A stretch of DNA of 51,472 nucleotides from an uncultured Pseudomonadota bacterium (lineage in GTDB: Bacteria; Babelota; Babeliae; Babelales; RVW-14): NCBI GenBank assembly GCA_964519365.1, contig CAZFHP010000002.1, positions 7,527 to 58,998 on the forward strand, given 5' to 3'. The position numbers and the translations under genes were made by a program. The notes beneath the pieces were generated by a model. That model worked only from the letters and a program-made list of their open reading frames with translations, had not been told where the DNA came from and ran no database searches. Positions 39,200 to 46,839 of the stretch are shown here, piece by piece. Positions within the stretch are counted from its first letter, which is position 1. The number at the start of each line of letters is the position of its first letter.

Positions 39200-39292
39200 C
39201 GTTTTAAAAAATTCGTAAAAATTATCGTTGTTATTATACTGGTGTGAGTTGAAATTTATGTTTTGAAGTTTGCAAGGAGAAAGGGTGTAGTA

Positions 39293-40300
39293 ATGGTAGT
39301 ACTGGGGCGTGGTTTTTTTTTTGTTTTTGTGTTGTTATCTACAATGCCAAACAGTTGCCTTGCTCAGCAAGCACATAAGCAAGCGCAAGCACAAGAAGAA
39401 CAAGTTCAATCAAAGTTAAGCAACAAAAAATATTTTTGTTCTGTTGCAGATGAAAAACATTATCCATGGCTCTTAAATTTAATCGGGAGCATTCACAAAA
39501 ATAACTGGGAAAATTTAGAACAGATTGCGATTATCGATCTAGGCTTTACACAAGAACAGCGTGCTACGCTAAACACAATGGAGCACGTATGTGTGTATGA
39601 TCTTGATGTGACACACCCTCTTCGGGATGATCTCTTAACCCCCTTTTTAACGTCTAATTGGGGAAAAAAAGTTCGTGGGTGGTTTGCATGGAAGCCGGTT
39701 GTAATAAAACAGGCACTTGATATGTTTGATTATGTTTTTTATCTGGACGCAGGCTGTGTTGTTCTTAAGCCATTAGATAATCTATTTAAGTATATTCAAG
39801 AGAAAGATCATTTTCTTGTTCGAGATCAAGAATGGTTTGTCGGAGGTCAAAGTAAATTGTTTACGATTGGTGAGCAGTGTACGCGCTATGTGTTAGATAA
39901 ATTTAATTTACTGTCTCCTGAAAATCAATGGATATTACATGAGGCAAATATTTTGCCGGGCATACAGGGTGTAAGCAGAGCAATATATGATTCGTATGTG
40001 ATGCCGATGTATGAATTTACGAAAGATCTAAAGATTTTTGAAGACGATGGGTCTTCTATGTATGGTTTTGGATGGGCCAGGCATGATCAGACGATTTATA
40101 GTATTTTTGTGCGCTTGTATGGATTTGAGCCTTTTGAAACGCAAAAAGAGGTTGAGTTAGAAGCCGATGGAAAGAAGTTTACTGTGCATTGTTGTGATTA
40201 TGCGCCGCATAACCCTGACATTTTTTATAATTGTAAAGGGGGTATGAATTTTGCAGATGACATACGTTATAAGAAAGAAGCCTGCCAGAGAAGCCAATAG
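39293..40300 (+). CDS. Secreted protein, possible nucleotide-sugar transferase (DUF1647-like pattern)
   Basis: The start is taken at ATG 39293, giving a signal peptide MVVLGRGFFFVFVLLSTMPNSCLA. The strings IAIIDLGFT, WFAWKPVVIKQAL and YVFYLDAGCVV recall GT-A/DUF1647 proteins, from memory only. Confidence 0.55.
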   Translation: MVVLGRGFFFVFVLLSTMPNSCLAQQAHKQAQAQEEQVQSKLSNKKYFCSVADEKHYPWLLNLIGSIHKNNWENLEQIAIIDLGFTQEQRATLNTMEHVCVYDLDVTHPLRDDLLTPFLTSNWGKKVRGWFAWKPVVIKQALDMFDYVFYLDAGCVVLKPLDNLFKYIQEKDHFLVRDQEWFVGGQSKLFTIGEQCTRYVLDKFNLLSPENQWILHEANILPGIQGVSRAIYDSYVMPMYEFTKDLKIFEDDGSSMYGFGWARHDQTIYSIFVRLYGFEPFETQKEVELEADGKKFTVHCCDYAPHNPDIFYNCKGGMNFADDIRYKKEACQRSQ

Positions 40301-40391: not shown

Positions 40392-41618
40392 ATGAAGAGT
40401 TCAAGAATAGCTTGTTCTATATGGTTATGCCTTAGTTTTTTCGTTTTGCATGTTGGCCAGAGTTTTGCGAGCTTTCCAACAGGAACACGTGTTGCAACGT
40501 CGGATGGGCTTGTTGCTATAGAAAAGTTGTCTGTTGGCGATAAAGTTCTGAGCTATGATCTTAATGAAACAGATACGAACAAGAAAATAATAGAAGTCAC
40601 TGTTACAGAAATTAATAAACACATTGCAGATTCTATTTTTACGTTGTATACGGCAGATGGGGGGTGGGTTGAAGCATCGCCACAGCAGCTTCTTTTTACG
40701 ATTAAATCTACCAGAGATAAAACTATTGAGCAGGCGAGTGATACGCTTGTTATGGATTTTGTTCAAGCGCAATACATAACAACAGATTATATGCTTATTG
40801 ACGAGCATTTGACCTGTGTTCCTATTACTAAAGCTGTAAGAACAGAACTAAGGACGACGTACCCGCAACAATATTCAGAAAAAATAAAGCGTAATAGACG
40901 GAATGAAATTACGTCTATAGAAAAGCGAATCGTTAACATTGATACGTATGCAATAGAAGTAGAAGAGCCACATATACTCTTGATTTCTGATCGATCATGT
41001 GATAAAACAACCAGCAAGCCTCGTTTATTGTTAACGCATAACGGTATCCCTGCGCTTGCTGTTGGGGTGTCATTAGCCTTTGGATCAACCCCAGCGTCAC
41101 TTTCTTTGGCTGGAGTATCAGCAAGTGTTGGGGGGTTGGGAGTTACTTTGGGTCCTGTGGGAGTTGCGCTTGGAGTTGCAACGGGCTTAGGATTGTTGGG
41201 ATATCAGCTTTTTAAAGGCAACAAGAAACAAGAGACGTCTTTTTATATTGAGCGTTCCGGCCCAAGTGGTTCAGGAAGTCCTGGAGGGAGAGACCCTAAG
41301 GATGATGATGAGGATAAAAGGGAAAAAGAAAATGAAAAGCTTGTTGTGACGCAAGGCAAAAGTAATGCTCCAAAAAAAAGTATACCGAATTCCGTTTATG
41401 AAAAGATTGATAATGAAAATAAAAATATTGTTACATCTCGAACAACCTATGATGATAATGGCTATCCAACAACAAGATGCGACTTTTATAGAGGGAGTAA
41501 CCCTCATACACATTTTGATAAAGGAAGTAGTAGAATTCTTAAAAATCATAAACATATTTTTAGGTTTAACAATAAAGGACAACTACTAACGAGTGAAAAA
41601 GTTGTTTTGATAGAATAA
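40392..41618 (+). CDS. Polymorphic toxin 1: signal peptide, Hint (PT-HINT-like), glycine-zipper segment, variable C-terminal domain
   Basis: The Hint motifs are SFPTGTRVATSDGLVAIEKLSVGDKVLSYD, DTYAIEVEEPHILLI and LLLTHN|G. The glycine zipper reads GGLGVTLGPVGVALGVATGLGLLG. The unique His-rich C-terminus covers aa 290-408. Confidence 0.8.
   Translation: MKSSRIACSIWLCLSFFVLHVGQSFASFPTGTRVATSDGLVAIEKLSVGDKVLSYDLNETDTNKKIIEVTVTEINKHIADSIFTLYTADGGWVEASPQQLLFTIKSTRDKTIEQASDTLVMDFVQAQYITTDYMLIDEHLTCVPITKAVRTELRTTYPQQYSEKIKRNRRNEITSIEKRIVNIDTYAIEVEEPHILLISDRSCDKTTSKPRLLLTHNGIPALAVGVSLAFGSTPASLSLAGVSASVGGLGVTLGPVGVALGVATGLGLLGYQLFKGNKKQETSFYIERSGPSGSGSPGGRDPKDDDEDKREKENEKLVVTQGKSNAPKKSIPNSVYEKIDNENKNIVTSRTTYDDNGYPTTRCDFYRGSNPHTHFDKGSSRILKNHKHIFRFNNKGQLLTSEKVVLIE
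40746..41257 (+). repeat. 512-bp near-identical direct repeat, copy 1 (inside toxin 1)
   Basis: Base-by-base comparison with 43346-43857 (offset exactly 2600) shows 2 mismatches. The flanks on both sides diverge abruptly. Confidence 0.95.
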
Positions 41619-41674
41619 ATGATATTTTTATAAATTAAATGTATAGCAATGATGAAGTTAAATATAGGGGTGTA

Positions 41675-42184
41675 ATGAGTTGGAAAGTGCTTGGAATATT
41701 AGAATTAAATGATGTTGCCGCATATTCAAAAAAAGTAAGACTTTCATTTTTAGTAGCTGAAAAAGCAACAAAATATAAAATTGGAATTAAATTTGGGAAG
41801 AACATATTCACAGGTTTTAGAAAAAAGTATAAAGAAGGTACGAAGAGAATGCTTTTTGAACTAACAGATGATCCTATGGCGATCAATGCCGATAACCTTT
41901 TCGCTGAGGAATATGCTCCTGAGGCAGATGTTGATTTTGACGATAGGTTGTTTCCAAGAATGTTACGTATGCAGAATTTTCTAGAAGAAGTCTTAAAAAT
42001 CGAAGCTGTCAACAAAGTGGTTTTAGATCTTAATATTGATAATGAAGTTAAATTTGAGACCATGGTGACTGATGTTAATAATTTTTGTAATACCATGTTG
42101 AAGCTATATGAAGAAAAAAAAGATTTTTGGATGCCAACAGAGAAGATTATTGTACAGAAGTCTCATGAGATAAAGGGATTATAA
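41675..42184 (+). CDS. Putative immunity protein 1a (169 aa)
   Basis: It lies immediately downstream of toxin 1 and has no signal peptide. The start is taken at MSWKVLGI (AGGGG SD), which gives the same length as paralogue 1b. Confidence 0.55.
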   Translation: MSWKVLGILELNDVAAYSKKVRLSFLVAEKATKYKIGIKFGKNIFTGFRKKYKEGTKRMLFELTDDPMAINADNLFAEEYAPEADVDFDDRLFPRMLRMQNFLEEVLKIEAVNKVVLDLNIDNEVKFETMVTDVNNFCNTMLKLYEEKKDFWMPTEKIIVQKSHEIKGL

Positions 42185-42185
42185 A

Positions 42186-42695
42186 GTGAGCTTAAAAGTT
42201 TTTGGAGTTTTTCATATAGACAATAGCGCTATAACTGTTGACGAGATAGTACGAATATCATTTTCTATGGTTCAAAAGGCTATAAAAAAGAATGTAGGCA
42301 TAAAACTTGGAGGAAGTATAACACAGAGCTTTCTTGATCGATATGAAAATATTAGTCAGGCAATTCCATTTGAGCTAACAGATAATCTTATGGAAGAAAG
42401 TGCGAGTTGTTTGTTTTCTGGAGATGTTGGTTCTGTAAAAACAAACAGTATACACATGTGTACAAATGAATCTTTAGAATCTAGAATGTTTCATGTACAG
42501 AATTTTCTAGGTGAATTATTAAAAATAAAAGAGGCTAAAAAGATAGTTTTAGACATTAATACTAAGGAAGAAGTTTTTTTTGAGACAATTAAAATTAGTG
42601 TTGAGAATTATTGTAAAGCGATGCTTGAATTGTATGAAAAAAATAATAATATGACACCTGTTATGAGAATTGTTTTAAAAAAAACTATCATTTGA
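42186..42695 (+). CDS. Putative immunity protein 1b (169 aa, paralogue of 1a)
   Basis: It has a GTG start 1 nt after the 1a stop. It is collinear with 1a (..MQNFLEEVLKIEAVNKVVLDLN.. versus ..VQNFLGELLKIKEAKKIVLDIN..). Confidence 0.55.
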   Translation: MSLKVFGVFHIDNSAITVDEIVRISFSMVQKAIKKNVGIKLGGSITQSFLDRYENISQAIPFELTDNLMEESASCLFSGDVGSVKTNSIHMCTNESLESRMFHVQNFLGELLKIKEAKKIVLDINTKEEVFFETIKISVENYCKAMLELYEKNNNMTPVMRIVLKKTII

Positions 42696-42889
42696 TGTTG
42701 GTTGCCAGATAGTGGTCCAAAAGGGAGTTTTGTAATTTCTGTAATAAAAGATTACGATTGGGAAATTTCTCTTTATCATAAACAAACTAAAGATTTAGAA
42801 ATGCTTGATACGTTTGTTGGGGAGTGTAGGATTTTAGATCATAGTGGAAATCTGAATTTTGTCTGAATATTACCGTTTTGTATTCATTT

Positions 42890-42918
42890 TTGAACATTTT
42901 TGATATTTGCAGTAAAGT
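42890..42918 (+). promoter_or_regulatory. Putative promoter TTGAAC-17-TAAAGT upstream of toxin 2 (conserved element, copy 1)
   Basis: The core TATTTGCAGTAAAGTA (42904-42919) recurs exactly at 44709-44724 with the same -35/-10 geometry. Confidence 0.4.
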
Positions 42919-42991
42919 AGCCTGTTGAGAAAGGGGGACAAAAGCTTGATTGCTTCAAATGTTATTTGTTGCATCTTCGTAGGAGTTCATA

Positions 42992-44209
42992 ATGCTTTAC
43001 AAAAAAACAATCCGATTTATATGTTTATGCTTGAGTCTTATTTTTTCTCATCTTGATCTATGCCGATCAAGTCTTCCTGCCGGGACTCAAATTGCAACTT
43101 CTAACGGGTTAGTTTCCGTCGAAATGCTAGGTGTCGGGGATAAGGTGTTGGGCTATGATCTTAACGAAACAGATCCCAATAAAAGAATAATAGAAGTTGC
43201 TGTAATAAATATCGATAAACATTTGGCGGATTCTATTTTTACTTTGTACACAACAGAAGGGGGCTGGGTTGAAGCTTCGCCGCAGCAGCTATTTTTTACT
43301 CTTGAGTCAACGGTTGGCCAAGCTGCGGATCAGGTAGGTAAGATTCTTGTTATGGATTTTGTTCAAGCGCAATACATAACAACAGATTATATGCTTATTG
43401 ACGAGCATTTGACCTGTGTTCCTATTACTAAAGCTGTAAGAACAGAACTAAGGACGACGTACCCGCAACAATATTCAGAAAAAATAAAGCGTAATAGACG
43501 GAATGAAATTACGTCTATAGAAAAGCGAATCGTTAACATTGATACGTATGCAATAGAAGTAGAAGAGCCACATATACTCTTGATTTCTGATCGATCATGT
43601 GATAAAACAACCAGCAAGCCTCGTTTATTGTTAACGCATAACGGTATCCCTGCGCTTGCTGTTGGGGTGTCATTAGCCTTTGGATCAACCCCAGCGTCAC
43701 TTTCTTTGGCTGGAGTATCAGCAAGTGTTGGGGGGTTGGGAGTTACTTTGGGTCCTGTGGGAGTTGCGCTTGGAGTTGCAACGGGCTTAGGATTGTTGGG
43801 ATATCAACTTTTTAAAGGCAATAAGAAACAAGAGACGTCTTTTTATATTGAGCGTTCGAGTTCAGGTGGACCAGGTGGATTGGATCCTAAAGATCCTAAA
43901 GATGATGAAGATGATGCCTCAATTAAAAGTTTGATAAAAGCGAAGCACTTGCCAACAGATGGTAAAATTAGATATGTCCCTCCTAAAGGCTTAAAACCAG
44001 CAGAAGGTTTGCCTCAAGCGAGAATTGGGAATGATAAGGCATTCATAGATAGGTTTGGTAATAAATGGCTAAAAGGGCCTTCGCGGACAATGGATGAACC
44101 ATTTGAGTGGGATGTTCAATTATCAAATCAAGGAAGAACACAACTAGGATGGGCATCTAAGAATGGTAATTATATTAATGTGAGTTTAAAAGGAAGGATT
44201 ACGCATTAA
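42992..44209 (+). CDS. Polymorphic toxin 2: same signal peptide, Hint and glycine-zipper chassis, different C-terminal domain
   Basis: An AGGAG SD is present. The Hint opens SLPAGTQIATSNGLVSVEMLGVGDKVLGYD. Nucleotides 43346-43857 are nearly identical to toxin 1. The unique C-terminus contains FIDRFGNKWLKGP..PFEWDVQLS..GNYINVSLKGRITH. Confidence 0.8.
   Translation: MLYKKTIRFICLCLSLIFSHLDLCRSSLPAGTQIATSNGLVSVEMLGVGDKVLGYDLNETDPNKRIIEVAVINIDKHLADSIFTLYTTEGGWVEASPQQLFFTLESTVGQAADQVGKILVMDFVQAQYITTDYMLIDEHLTCVPITKAVRTELRTTYPQQYSEKIKRNRRNEITSIEKRIVNIDTYAIEVEEPHILLISDRSCDKTTSKPRLLLTHNGIPALAVGVSLAFGSTPASLSLAGVSASVGGLGVTLGPVGVALGVATGLGLLGYQLFKGNKKQETSFYIERSSSGGPGGLDPKDPKDDEDDASIKSLIKAKHLPTDGKIRYVPPKGLKPAEGLPQARIGNDKAFIDRFGNKWLKGPSRTMDEPFEWDVQLSNQGRTQLGWASKNGNYINVSLKGRITH
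43346..43857 (+). repeat. 512-bp near-identical direct repeat, copy 2 (inside toxin 2)
   Basis: See copy 1. Confidence 0.95.
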
Positions 44210-44227
44210 TAATTTAGGATTTTACTT

Positions 44228-44581
44228 ATGAAAAAAGAACCGTTGATCGTAATTAAGTTAATGATAAGAAATTATACCGATCAGTTATCTCAAGAGATTC
44301 TTGGGCAAGCAAAAGCGTTGCTTTTTCAAAAATATCCAAAGATAGAGATTGAGCTTTTGAACACTGAAAAATACTGGAAAATTCCAGAACTAACGATTTG
44401 TTATGTGGGAATTTATTATGAAAATGCGATTTCTATCACGGATGTTTTAAGTTGTTTGACGAAGTCAAATTTTTGGCATGAAAAAGATAAACTTGAAGAA
44501 GAATCTGTATGGGATTTGCGAATACACCAAGGGATTTTGATAAACAAAAATGTTGAATGGGCACATGTTTATACTTGGTGA
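44228..44581 (+). CDS. Putative immunity protein 2 (117 aa)
   Basis: It starts 18 nt after the toxin 2 stop, has no signal peptide and is unrelated to immunity 1a/1b. This mirrors the unrelated toxin C-termini. Confidence 0.55.
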   Translation: MKKEPLIVIKLMIRNYTDQLSQEILGQAKALLFQKYPKIEIELLNTEKYWKIPELTICYVGIYYENAISITDVLSCLTKSNFWHEKDKLEEESVWDLRIHQGILINKNVEWAHVYTW

Positions 44582-44694
44582 CGTTATCATAAGAAAACTA
44601 AAAAATTAGAGAGTGCATTGTAATGGTGAAGAAATTTCTTCTGGGGAAATTATAGGGATTTTTTTTAGCTTTTATTTGTTTCGGTTTTATTTTT

Positions 44695-44723
44695 TTGAGT
44701 CACTTTGGTATTTGCAGTAAAGT
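44695..44723 (+). promoter_or_regulatory. Putative promoter TTGAGT-17-TAAAGT upstream of the ankyrin gene (conserved element, copy 2)
   Basis: It has the same 16-nt core and spacing as 42890-42918. A second shared block (AAGCTT.ATTG.TC.TGAAAT-like) follows in both copies. Confidence 0.4.
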
Positions 44724-44844
44724 ATTTTTTTAGGCAAGCTTATTGATCTTGAAATTGTTGAGCTATTGATTTGATTGTGCTTTCACGTGTATCATAAAAA
44801 AAATAGGACTGCTGTATCTTTCGGGTTTGCTTTTGGGGGATGTT

Positions 44845-45756
44845 ATGAGGGGGATTTTTAAGTTTATTTTGGGGGTTTTAGTTGTTGTTAAATTTTTTTG
44901 TTGTGATTTTTGTCAGGGAATGAAGATCGTAAGTGATGTTAAAGCGATTGAAAAGAGTGATTCAGAAATAGCTCGATGCTTTCTTAATGCTTTGAAAAGA
45001 AATGATGCTGATGGAGCCATAAAGCTTATTAAGAGTAATCCTGAGATGGTTAGCGAGGGTATTTTCGGAGAGCTTACCCCATTGCATTGTGTTGCATTAG
45101 AAAAGATTGTTGGGATTGATTGTGTTGGGGCAAAGAAAATAACAAGGGCTCTTGTTTTGTTAGGTGCTGATATTAATGCACGTGTAGGTTTTTTGGGTTT
45201 AACAAAAGGGTTGACGCCATTGTGTATTGCCGCGGGTATGGGGAATGTTGATTTGACGTTATTTTTTATTGAGCTTGGTGCGAAAGTTAATGCATTAAGA
45301 GTTGATAATTTGACGCCATTGCATTGCGCTGTAGAGAGGGAAGATATCCTAACAGCATTCTTGCTTATTTGTGCGGGTGCGAATATTTATGCTCAAACAA
45401 AAGGAGTGTATCCATTTTTATTTTCTAGAAATAGATATCGATTGCGAGATTCAAGGTTAACGGCATTACATCTTGCCGCATGGTTAGGGCGAACGAGTGC
45501 TGTTTCACAGTTGTTATCTGCAGATAAAAATAAAAGAAGAGCCTTGATGGCAAATGATCCGATACAAATGCGCCCATTAAAAGATTGGAAAACTAATTAC
45601 GGGAATACGTCTGCGGGATTGGCTTCACTTCGAAATCATGAACACGTTTTAAGGCTTCTTGGTAATGTGAGGGGTGATATCGTTGTTAATAAAACAAAAA
45701 ATAAGAAAACAAAAAATAAAAAGAAAAAGAAACGGAAGAAGAAAAACAAGAGGTGA
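44845..45756 (+). CDS. Ankyrin-repeat protein with N-terminal signal peptide and polybasic C-terminal tail
   Basis: The start is taken at ATG 44845 (MRGIFKFILGVLVVVKFF). At least four ANK-like units are present (LTPLHCVA, LTPLCIAAGMGNVDLTLFFIELGAKVNA, LTPLHCAVERED, LTALHLAAWLGR). The tail reads KTKNKKTKNKKKKKRKKKNKR. Confidence 0.85.
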   Translation: MRGIFKFILGVLVVVKFFCCDFCQGMKIVSDVKAIEKSDSEIARCFLNALKRNDADGAIKLIKSNPEMVSEGIFGELTPLHCVALEKIVGIDCVGAKKITRALVLLGADINARVGFLGLTKGLTPLCIAAGMGNVDLTLFFIELGAKVNALRVDNLTPLHCAVEREDILTAFLLICAGANIYAQTKGVYPFLFSRNRYRLRDSRLTALHLAAWLGRTSAVSQLLSADKNKRRALMANDPIQMRPLKDWKTNYGNTSAGLASLRNHEHVLRLLGNVRGDIVVNKTKNKKTKNKKKKKRKKKNKR

Positions 45757-45786: not shown

Positions 45787-46308
45787 TTAACTATGGTAAT
45801 TTAGGGGTAACTCAGGAAAGAAAAAGTTAATTTCTGTTGCCGCAGTTTCAGGAGCATCTGAACCATGGACGGCGTTTTGTGTGTAGCTTGCGGCATAAAG
45901 CTTTCGTAATGTATTTGGAGCGGCTTTAGCTGGGTTTGTTGCGCCCATTAAATCACGCCATGTTTTTATAGCGTTTTCTTTTTCTAAGACCATAGCGATG
46001 ATAGGTCCTGATGTTATGAATTTTACGAGATTTTTAAAAAATGGTTTGCCCTTATGTACACCGTAGAATTTTTCAGCACGGATTTTTGAGAGCATTGTCT
46101 TTTTCATGGCAACTATAGTAAAACCTTCTTGTTCAATGCGATCGATAATTTTACCTGTATTTTTATCTTTAACGGCATTAGGTTTGATCATGGCAAACGT
46201 ATGATTTGTTTGTTGTGTCGTGTTTGTTTTGTTTGTTAGGCATGAAGAGAAAAGTATTAAGCATATGCTTAACGAGAGAAGAAGAAAGTTGCGAATTTTT
46301 GTGATCAT
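45787..46308 (-). CDS. Nucleoside diphosphate kinase paralogue with N-terminal signal peptide (possible lipoprotein)
   Basis: A full NDK core is present (AMIKPNAV, catalytic NAVHGSD). It is preceded by a 37-aa extension MITKIRNFLLLSLSICLILFSSC... Confidence 0.85.
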   Translation of the reverse strand: MITKIRNFLLLSLSICLILFSSCLTNKTNTTQQTNHTFAMIKPNAVKDKNTGKIIDRIEQEGFTIVAMKKTMLSKIRAEKFYGVHKGKPFFKNLVKFITSGPIIAMVLEKENAIKTWRDLMGATNPAKAAPNTLRKLYAASYTQNAVHGSDAPETAATEINFFFPELPLNYHS

Positions 46309-46431: not shown

Positions 46432-46839
46432 TTATGTTAATTCAGGAAAGAAGAAGTTAATTTCACACACAGCTGTTTCTGGCGAATCAGAACCGTGTGT
46501 TGCATTTTCTGTAAAGCTTGCTGCATAGAGCTTGCGCAATGTATTTTCAGCGGCTTTTTCAGGGTTTGTTGCACCCATTAAATCGCGCCATGCTTGAATG
46601 GCATTTTCTTTTTCTAAAACCATAACGAAAATTGGCCCTGATGACATAAATGTTACGAGTTCTCCAAAGAAAGGCTTACCTTTGTGTATTGCATAAAAGT
46701 CTTGTGCTCGCTCACTTGTCAGGTGAAGCTTTTTAATTGTGACAATATTAAAGCCTTCTTGTTCAATACGATCAATGATCTTGCCCGTATTTTTGTCGTT
46801 TACGGCGTTTGGTTTAATTATTGCTAATGTTCGTTCCAT
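46432..46839 (-). CDS. ndk: Nucleoside diphosphate kinase
   Basis: The 135-aa ORF has the motifs [22 protein letters not shown] and NATHGSDS. Confidence 0.95.

Follow-up and report, generated by a model that had tools for sequence, protein, structure and literature searches.

How a toxin might reach other cells from a locus that holds no dedicated secretion machine is the question raised by two neighbouring genes in a stretch of 51,472 nucleotides (nt) of contig CAZFHP010000002.1 (assembly GCA_964519365.1, positions 7,527 to 58,998 of the forward strand), which in its whole length is called the window here. Together with three small downstream open reading frames (ORFs), the two genes very probably form a polymorphic toxin-immunity system of two cassettes, in which both toxins are built on the same chassis of a signal peptide, a Hint domain, and a hydrophobic glycine-zipper module, followed by a linker and a variable C-terminal toxin domain (Table 1). 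The original prediction had described two signal-peptide ORFs of 408 and 405 amino acids (aa), a Hint domain beginning at the cleavage site, and unrelated C-termini, and all of these details were confirmed. The two toxins are paralogues, 82% identical across aa 1–298, and show no similarity beyond. E-values for the features of the locus range from 1e-27 to 1e-185, and these features are therefore not chance products.

The chassis is not restricted to the window. A word-indexed search identified 27 homologues of about 380–450 aa with 40–83% identity, of which the named ones belong to 'Candidatus Babeliales'. When 1.84 billion cluster representatives were searched exhaustively with a profile, 29 proteins scored below 1e-30 and 90 below 1e-10, and at least 74 full-length cluster representatives carry the chassis layout. 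Most matches of 260–600 aa have in common a signal peptide, a Hint domain from residue 20–35, a His-Asn pair at 150–240, a hydrophobic stretch with few charges (median 50 aa), a Lys/Glu-rich linker, and a tail. A survey for the same chassis with other C-termini had been proposed earlier; among the 74 full-length relatives it revealed 26 unrelated tail clusters, and the same tail types were found on chassis with a long and with a short Hint domain. Recognised tails are colicin-E3-like (16 proteins), Ntox37 (8), Ntox21 (5), Ntox35 (4), Ntox17 (2), Tox-HNH-EHHH (1), and DUF4258. A constant N-terminal part with unrelated tails, known toxin families among these tails, a co-varying downstream gene, and orphan modules with recombination at the junction are all present, as expected of polymorphic toxins, and the claim of a polymorphic toxin locus was borne out.

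The window FtsZ is 50–75% identical to FtsZ of Dependentiae/Babeliales (TM6) genomes, and the host is therefore placed in Dependentiae, a phylum of obligate protist parasites (PMC4776705, PMC6561590). All taxon-labelled members of the chassis family likewise belong to Dependentiae/Babeliales, one short-Hint member comes from a Babeliales genome, and most members lie on unlabelled metagenome contigs. No chassis relatives were found on viral contigs, and literature searches gave no earlier account of a polymorphic toxin or a Hint protein from Dependentiae/Babeliales. Three chassis toxins occur on CAZMQG01 contigs (L009–L011, L037) that were deposited as 'uncultured Pseudomonadota'. The FtsZ of CAZMQG01 is Babeliales-like, with 61% identity to the window FtsZ, and the label is therefore probably wrong.

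Toxin 2 ends in a complete Ntox17 domain (96.1 bits with a cut-off of 25, profile positions 2–98 of 98) that holds the ExD motif of the family (FEWDV), as given in Zhang et al. 2012; a sequence search of the PDB with this tail gave no match. The tail of toxin 1 was also found in P0006, P0029, P0037, P0152, and P0167, and this tox1-type family has invariant Tyr, His, and Lys-His residues. It matched no Pfam family, and a profile search of the PDB remained without a match. Ntox24 was considered for the toxin 1 tail (E=0.066) and rejected, as the match was not reproduced in four relatives. Both tails are basic, with the isoelectric points (pI) given in Table 1. As a separate observation, the tail of the Babeliales toxin P0166 is 44–52% identical to segments in Methylocapsa sp. 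(L099) and Paenibacillus popilliae (L100), an alphaproteobacterium and a firmicute, and tails are therefore exchanged across phyla.

Downstream of each toxin gene lie one or two small ORFs of its own. ORF 1a had been listed with 181 aa; since an AGGGG Shine-Dalgarno sequence lies 7–11 nt 5' of the ATG at 41675, a Met at which the homologues start as well, its length is 169 aa, as in the original prediction. ORF 1b starts 1 nt past the stop of 1a and is 37% identical to it, and the 117-aa ORF, unrelated to this pair, starts 18 nt after toxin 2. The immunity candidates matched no Pfam or NCBIfam family. They contain no hydrophobic segment (maximal Kyte–Doolittle hydropathy over 19 residues <1) and are mildly acidic (pI about 6). 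Judged by their sequence, all three are proteins of cytoplasmic type, acidic as against the basic tails.

Their link to the tails was seen in other genomes. In L014, a tox1-type tail is followed by a tandem pair of the 169-aa family with the identical 1-nt spacing (L014 3146–4106), L017 holds two further homologues of this family after a tox1-type toxin, and in L016 and L101 the Ntox17-tailed chassis toxins are followed by proteins with 59% and 67% identity to the 117-aa ORF. The family of the downstream ORF co-varies with the tail, 169-aa proteins going with tox1-type tails (L014, L017, L101) and 117-aa proteins with Ntox17 (L016, L101), and this co-variation, together with the orphan cassettes, supports the earlier description of the downstream ORFs as immunity-like. 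L101 (1–2473) has the same order as the window, namely tox1-type tail, 169-family ORF, Ntox17 toxin, and 117-family ORF, in a different chassis subtype and genomic context, with only one 169-family gene and adjoining a Mur ligase gene. From this match in order, the two-cassette unit moves or persists as a block. L101 represents a second Dependentiae lineage, with 67% identity to a TM6 GW2011_GWF2_38_10 protein. Between the window and L014, the first members of the pairs are 46% identical, compared with 37% within the pair, so that the duplication is old and both copies were kept. Neither 169-aa copy seems dispensable; they may form a heterodimer or serve two compartments.

Orphan modules in L009, L010, L012, L016, and P0167 begin inside the zipper, run through the junction into another tail, and are each followed by an own small ORF; the window itself has no orphan. 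The DNA of the two toxin genes points to the same unit. A tract of 461 nt is free of mismatches (40746–41206 = 43346–43806) and extends to 512 nt with 2 mismatches, the first 354 nt of the genes are only 55–85% identical, and similarity drops abruptly beyond codon 289. From the zipper onward, the gene corresponds to the unit of the orphan cassettes and is also covered by the identical DNA tract, and the zipper-junction region is the homology tract for tail exchange. Two other loci give an idea of how such cassettes are arranged elsewhere. L016 2418–6591 (GCA_001468855.1, LDIV01000003.1) is an array of toxins: an orphan module that begins within the zipper comes first, followed by a masked stretch resembling an insertion sequence and by a second, full-length toxin with a 183-aa ORF; the contig begins with another immunity-like gene. 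In L001 (117–17241), the homologue P0005 and two tandem 79-aa ORFs after it lie inside an integrative element, which also encodes a tyrosine integrase, a helicase, a primase/VapE-like protein, and two serine recombinases. Some of the cassettes are therefore carried by mobile elements of the integrative kind.

At their N-terminus, both toxins have a basic n-region and a hydrophobic h-region (Kyte–Doolittle hydropathy of 2.35 over 12 residues), and AlphaFold2 (AF2) predicts a helix at aa 2–20 of the toxin. The residues at –3 and –1 of SFA|S in toxin 1 and CRS|S in toxin 2 are compatible with signal peptidase I, and in 68 relatives the predicted cleavage falls on Hint residue 1 plus or minus one residue, with Ala (22) or Ser (21) at –1. 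A lipoprotein signal was rejected, as the Cys of the h-region is preceded by Leu or Phe and no lipobox is formed.

The Pfam profile Hint_2 aligns aa 27–56 to its positions 2–31, and because this alignment begins at profile position 2, the Hint domain starts at S27; the Pfam families Hint_2, PT-HINT, and Hint all align from residue 26–27. Forty of the 74 relatives match PT-HINT at E<1e-3 (best E=3.4e-15), and the short-Hint relatives P0048, P0056, P0064, P0070, and P0073 reach its gathering score over the whole profile. A chassis profile of 14 sequences matches the bacterial intein-like (BIL) domain 2LWY of C. thermocellum with E=4e-7. AF2 on 23 close homologues gave a predicted local distance difference test score (pLDDT) of 43.8; the final model used 74 sequences including the short-Hint relatives, and its pLDDT is mostly >90 over aa 27–218. 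When this model was compared with the PDB by Foldseek, all of the top 50 matches were Hint folds (BILs, mini-inteins, Hedgehog), the best being BIL2 6y75 (E=6e-9), and 2lwy and the gp41-1 intein with a TM-score of 0.85. According to the predicted structure, the N-terminal domain of the chassis is a Hint fold, nearest to BIL domains.

Conservation within this domain is one-sided. At its C-terminal end, a block F motif (YAIEVEEPH) and a block G motif (THN|G) were found, H216 and N217, the His-Asn of block G, are invariant in 74 of 74 relatives, and the block F His (H194) is kept in 71. At its N-terminal end, residue 1 is Ser (30), Gly (21), Ala (18), or Val (1) and never Cys, with Ser in the window proteins, and the block B His position is Gln in 62 relatives and His in 12 (SPQQ in the window); the combination of a Cys or Ser nucleophile at the N-terminus with a block B TxxH is not kept across the family. 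The residue after the Asn (+1) is Gly in 31 and Phe in 23 of the relatives, then Ala, Val, Ile, Glu, and others, and never Cys or Ser. An intein has Cys, Ser, or Thr at +1 and a ligatable N-extein; here, +1 is Gly and the only N-extein is the signal peptide. Because the signal-peptidase site falls at Hint residue 1, no N-extein is left and splicing is impossible. As far as conservation can tell, C-terminal cleavage by Asn cyclisation would therefore be the only activity that can be under selection, which fits the earlier claim that only this reaction would matter. Type-A BILs, which have His-Asn and no +1 nucleophile, chiefly cleave, and C-terminal cleavage by Asn cyclisation is possible without the earlier splicing steps (PMC4031507). 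N-myristoylation of the freed N-terminal Gly was rejected, as +1 is Gly in only 31 of 74 relatives and the next residues are off consensus.

The module after the Hint domain comprises 58 aa (aa 218–275) with 13 Gly, 11 Leu, 8 Ala, 8 Val, 6 Ser, and one charged residue, K275, at the final position. Stacked (G/A/S)xxxG spacing on a predicted hydrophobic helix is seen in GxxxG pairs at 250, 257, and 261, besides 16 small-xxx-small pairs in all, and G247, G254, P255, G261, and Y271 are invariant in the subfamily. The Pfam glycine-zipper families gave no match at E≤1 in the window proteins. Kyte–Doolittle hydropathy peaks with 1.81 over aa 251–269, and AF2 places helices of low confidence at 220–226, 234–245, and 254–274. 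For the best 19-residue zipper window, the apparent insertion free energy has a median of +3.2 kcal/mol and is never <0 in the 74 proteins, on the scale of Hessa et al. 2005. A conserved junction (KK..SFYIER) with an invariant E287 follows the zipper, and then an acidic linker of Gly, Pro, Asp, and Lys with a pI of 4.6–4.9.

These features suggest a mechanism which in full, from export over shedding of the Hint domain to zipper-borne entry of the toxin, is judged to lie narrowly on the probable side. The Sec pathway would export the precursor, and signal peptidase I would cut at Hint residue 1 and leave no N-extein. The Hint domain would have lost the N-terminal half of intein chemistry, with only the His of block F and the His-Asn of block G retained. 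N217 would cyclise, the N217–G218 bond would break, and the Hint domain would shed itself, freeing a fragment of ~190 aa with zipper, junction, linker, and toxin, which before cleavage it probably holds soluble or inactive. The fragment would leave the cell by an outer-membrane route, for which the type II secretion system is a candidate; the core genes of Dependentiae include those for type II secretion components, with two copies of gspD (PMC4776705). The zipper would then insert into the target membrane and bring the toxin domain into the cytoplasm. In the Agrobacterium DNase effector Tde1, an N-terminal GxxxG zipper is required for membrane permeabilisation and prey entry (PMC10240207). 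The immunity proteins would guard the producer and its kin in the cytoplasm, and cytoplasmic immunity proteins fit toxins that act there. Competing Dependentiae or other bacteria in the same protist host are the most likely targets. The mechanism is plausible, and every step has a precedent. A further idea, speculative and rather doubtful, is a self-contained delivery device that needs no dedicated secretion machine, in which the covalently attached Hint domain would both chaperone the toxin and act as a safety cap that removes itself. Its cyclisation might respond to pH or redox conditions in the protist vacuole, and the zipper alone would carry nuclease toxins across the membrane, in a minimal AB-toxin logic by which the obligate intracellular Dependentiae would attack co-infecting bacteria or the host.

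Several points weigh against a self-releasing, exported toxin system. The window proteins stay under the Pfam gathering thresholds for every Hint family (PT-HINT 21.3 vs 27.7, Hint_2 23.9 vs 28.4, Hint 19.1 vs 29.7) in the Pfam check suggested earlier; the weak scores are due to insertions totalling ~45 aa in the Hint domain of the window subfamily (191 aa vs about 140). The 117-aa protein is not recognisably Imm31, the family paired with Ntox17 by Zhang et al. 2012, and no biochemical activity is assigned to the Ntox17 or tox1-type tail. The cassettes have no linked exporter, lysis gene, or receptor-binding domain; the upstream genes, compared at three loci, are unrelated and include no conserved partner or exporter. 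Moreover, the basic residues (KGNKK) right after the hydrophobic segment and the low-confidence AF2 helix of 21 residues at 254–274 fit a stop-transfer anchor. The toxins would then be type I inner-membrane proteins with the Hint domain in the periplasm and an immunity-bound toxin in the cytoplasm of the producer, cleavage would free only the Hint domain, and the role might be that of an addiction or abortive-type toxin-antitoxin system or a contact-dependent hand-over. Such an anchor would agree with the Lys/Arg cluster straight after the hydrophobic stretch in most members, with the hydropathy peak and the predicted helix, with immunity candidates of cytoplasmic type, and with the one homologue inside an integrative element whose genes include an integrase, recombinases, and a primase. 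It is nevertheless considered improbable: because the insertion free energy never falls below 0 and much of the segment consists of Gly, Pro, and Ser, export of the zipper is preferred over anchoring, the tails are domains of toxins exported by type V, type VI, and type VII secretion systems (T5SS, T6SS, T7SS), orphan cassettes and tail shuffling mark exported competition toxins, and a conserved self-cleaving Hint domain would be purposeless with nothing to release.

The fragment might also cross the vacuole or plasma membrane of the protist, with immunity protecting the producer only before export. Obligate parasitism of protists (PMC4776705, PMC6561590), the ankyrin-repeat gene adjoining the locus, and polymorphic-toxin-like proteins in the intracellular Amoebophilus and Odyssella (Zhang et al. 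2012) speak for a eukaryotic target, which is still thought unlikely, since tail diversification with matched immunity and orphans is predicted by conflict between kin and competitors and not by host manipulation. Colicin-E3-type domains, found as tails on relatives, are moreover known as bacterial ribosome toxins. That the zipper itself is a pore-forming or depolarising toxin like TelE or EsxX, with the tails as accessories, would have a parallel in membrane-depolarising glycine-zipper toxins among the T7SS LXG effectors; the zipper is constant, yet the downstream ORFs track the variable tail and are soluble, and the tails match nuclease-type toxin families, which makes this very unlikely. 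An N-terminal anchor that stays uncleaved, with the Hint domain cutting its own N-junction via Ser27 or splicing the anchor onto the zipper-toxin part, could draw on the Ser at Hint position 1 of the window proteins and on the ability of type-A BILs to splice (PMC4031507). With Gly or Ala at position 1 in 39 of 70 relatives and Cys in none, Gln for the block B His in 62 of 74, and signal-peptidase-type –3 and –1 residues at that very junction, it is regarded as extremely improbable.

The exported, Hint-shed toxin preferred here has relatives among known systems. Zhang et al. 2012 list polymorphic toxins with Sec-dependent export and HINT processing as one class, and the closest described system is MafB class 1 of Neisseria, with a signal peptide, DUF1020, a type-A BIL, and a variable tail, MafI immunity, orphan mafB-CT cassettes, and secretion that depends on the signal peptide by an outer-membrane route that is not established (PMC4287609). 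Both have in common a small toxin with a Sec signal, a BIL/Hint domain before a variable tail, an adjacent immunity gene, orphan cassettes, and a locus with no dedicated secretion machine; the chassis differs from MafB by the Hint domain directly after the signal peptide, the zipper between Hint and tail, and the phylum. DUF1020 (PF06255) was matched neither at E≤1 in the window proteins nor at E≤1e-3 in the 74 relatives, and two-partner secretion/haemagglutinin repeats, YD/Rhs, PAAR, and LXG are absent from the Pfam matches of window proteins and relatives, in agreement with the original prediction that Rhs, haemagglutinin, LXG, PAAR, and MafB scaffolds are lacking. A length of only about 260–600 aa also sets the chassis proteins apart from contact-dependent inhibition, Rhs, PAAR, and LXG toxins.

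With PT-HINT (PF07591) of Rhs and CdiA toxins, the chassis Hint shares the fold, the His-Asn end, and a presumed autoproteolytic toxin release. In contrast to these classical domains, it is N-terminal, has no N-extein, starts with Ser, Gly, or Ala, has Gln in place of the block B His, and would release a membrane-active module together with the toxin. Type-A BILs (2LWY; Tetrahymena BUBL BIL2 6Y75) are the best sequence and structure matches and likewise have His-Asn and no +1 nucleophile; they differ in that they start with Cys and lie between two polypeptides, while Cys1 is found in none of the chassis Hint domains, which are joined to a partner at the C-terminal end alone. A GxxxG-rich or hydrophobic region N-terminal to a nuclease-type toxin is also known from Tde1 (T6SS) and from Tse6/prePAAR effectors with transmembrane helices; those rely on the T6SS for delivery and on adaptors or chaperones for shielding, whereas the chassis is Sec-started and the attached Hint domain is the sole candidate shield. 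Engineered C-terminal-cleaving intein tags have a mutated first residue, are fused N-terminally to their target, and release it by Asn cyclisation. Like them, the chassis would free its C-terminal partner by a Hint domain devoid of N-terminal chemistry, and would be a natural case of what those are as laboratory constructs. New are the Hint domain directly after the signal peptide, the zipper between Hint and toxin, the Hint chemistry confined to the C-terminus, the lack of any other N-terminal domain, and the occurrence, so far, only in Dependentiae. The expectation of an undescribed delivery system consequently holds for arrangement and phylum, and does not hold for the class as such, since Sec-dependent, HINT-processed toxins and MafB class 1 were known.

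If the proposed mechanism is true, this would be the simplest polymorphic-toxin chassis known, with ~300 aa for export, timed self-activation, and membrane translocation and with no need for Rhs cages, filaments, or injection machines. Of the reactions of a Hint domain, only C-terminal Asn cyclisation would be left, and the domain would serve as a pro-domain. The system would be a tractable model of how glycine zippers move folded or unfolded cargo over bilayers and of how nuclease toxins cross the inner membrane, and it would be the first competition system described for Dependentiae, pointing to bacterial conflict inside protist hosts. A natural self-cleaving tag for biotechnology might be obtained, as the natural counterpart of the engineered C-terminal-cleaving intein tags. 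New toxin and immunity families are supplied by the tox1-type tail, the 169-aa pair, and the 117-aa protein.

Table 1. Features of the two-cassette locus (positions in the window; aa positions in the respective protein).
Feature	Position	Strand	Basis and remarks
Toxin gene 1	40392..41618	+	408 aa; ORF call; 100% identical to P0001
Signal peptide, toxin 1 (aa 1–26)	40392..40469	+	Hydropathy, AF2 helix; predicted cut SFA|S
Hint domain, toxin 1 (aa 27–217)	40470..41042	+	Type-A BIL-like, PT-HINT-related; ends H216-N217; predicted scissile bond N217|G218
Glycine-zipper hydrophobic module, toxin 1 (aa 218–275)	41043..41216	+	Composition, GxxxG spacing
End of constant region and acidic linker, toxin 1 (aa 276–311)	41217..41324	+	Alignment; KK..SFYIER motif; pI 4.9
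C-terminal toxin domain, toxin 1 (aa 312–408), and stop	41325..41618	+	pI 9.6; unclassified family
Immunity candidate 1a	41675..42184	+	169 aa, pI 6.0, no signal peptide; Shine-Dalgarno and start codon
Immunity candidate 1b	42186..42695	+	169 aa; paralogue of 1a
Toxin gene 2	42992..44209	+	405 aa; chassis as toxin 1, Ntox17 tail; signal peptide aa 1–26
Hint domain, toxin 2 (aa 27–217)	43070..43642	+	
Zipper, toxin 2 (aa 218–275)	43643..43816	+	
Ntox17 (PF15524) domain, toxin 2 (aa 310–405), and stop	43919..44209	+	Pfam E=1.5e-27; pI 10.1
Immunity candidate 2	44228..44581	+	117 aa, pI 5.9, no signal peptide; homologues after Ntox17-tailed toxins
Recombination/gene-conversion tract	40746..41257 = 43346..43857	+	aa 119–289; ends at constant/variable junction

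The locus lies among housekeeping genes (ftsA, ftsZ, class A penicillin-binding protein, mutS, pilN, rpsA). No chassis gene was found near ftsZ in 80 other Dependentiae genomes, and the position of the locus is therefore not syntenic. The spacers 42696–42991 and 44582–44826 contain no recognisable toxin or immunity remnant, and promoter and terminator scans gave no excess over shuffled controls. The sequence GATATTTGCAGTAAAGTA is located at 42902–42919, ~75–105 nt 5' of toxin gene 2, and again, with one mismatch, at 44707–44724, ~105 nt 5' of an ankyrin-repeat gene; these are 2 matches compared with 0.11 expected, and it is not present 5' of toxin gene 1. The two copies sit in a 33-nt repeat (42887–42919 and 44692–44724) and may represent a common promoter or regulatory site for toxin gene 2 and the ankyrin-repeat gene.

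Directly 5' of toxin 1, a 345-aa protein (39263–40300, +) with a signal-peptide-like N-terminus and no Pfam family is encoded; it is unrelated to the genes 5' of homologous toxins and is therefore not a conserved partner. Directly 3' of the locus follows the ankyrin-repeat protein (44827–45756, +), which has at least 4 repeats, is hydrophobic at its N-terminus, and ends in a poly-Lys tail; such a protein is a typical candidate for an effector with which Dependentiae act on their host. Beyond it, tandem paralogues of nucleoside-diphosphate kinase are found at 45787–46308 (–) and 46432–46839 (–). The longer paralogue has an extra N-terminal hydrophobic leader ending in ..LFSSC that resembles a lipoprotein or secretion signal, and an exported nucleoside-diphosphate kinase would, if true, be notable for an energy parasite.

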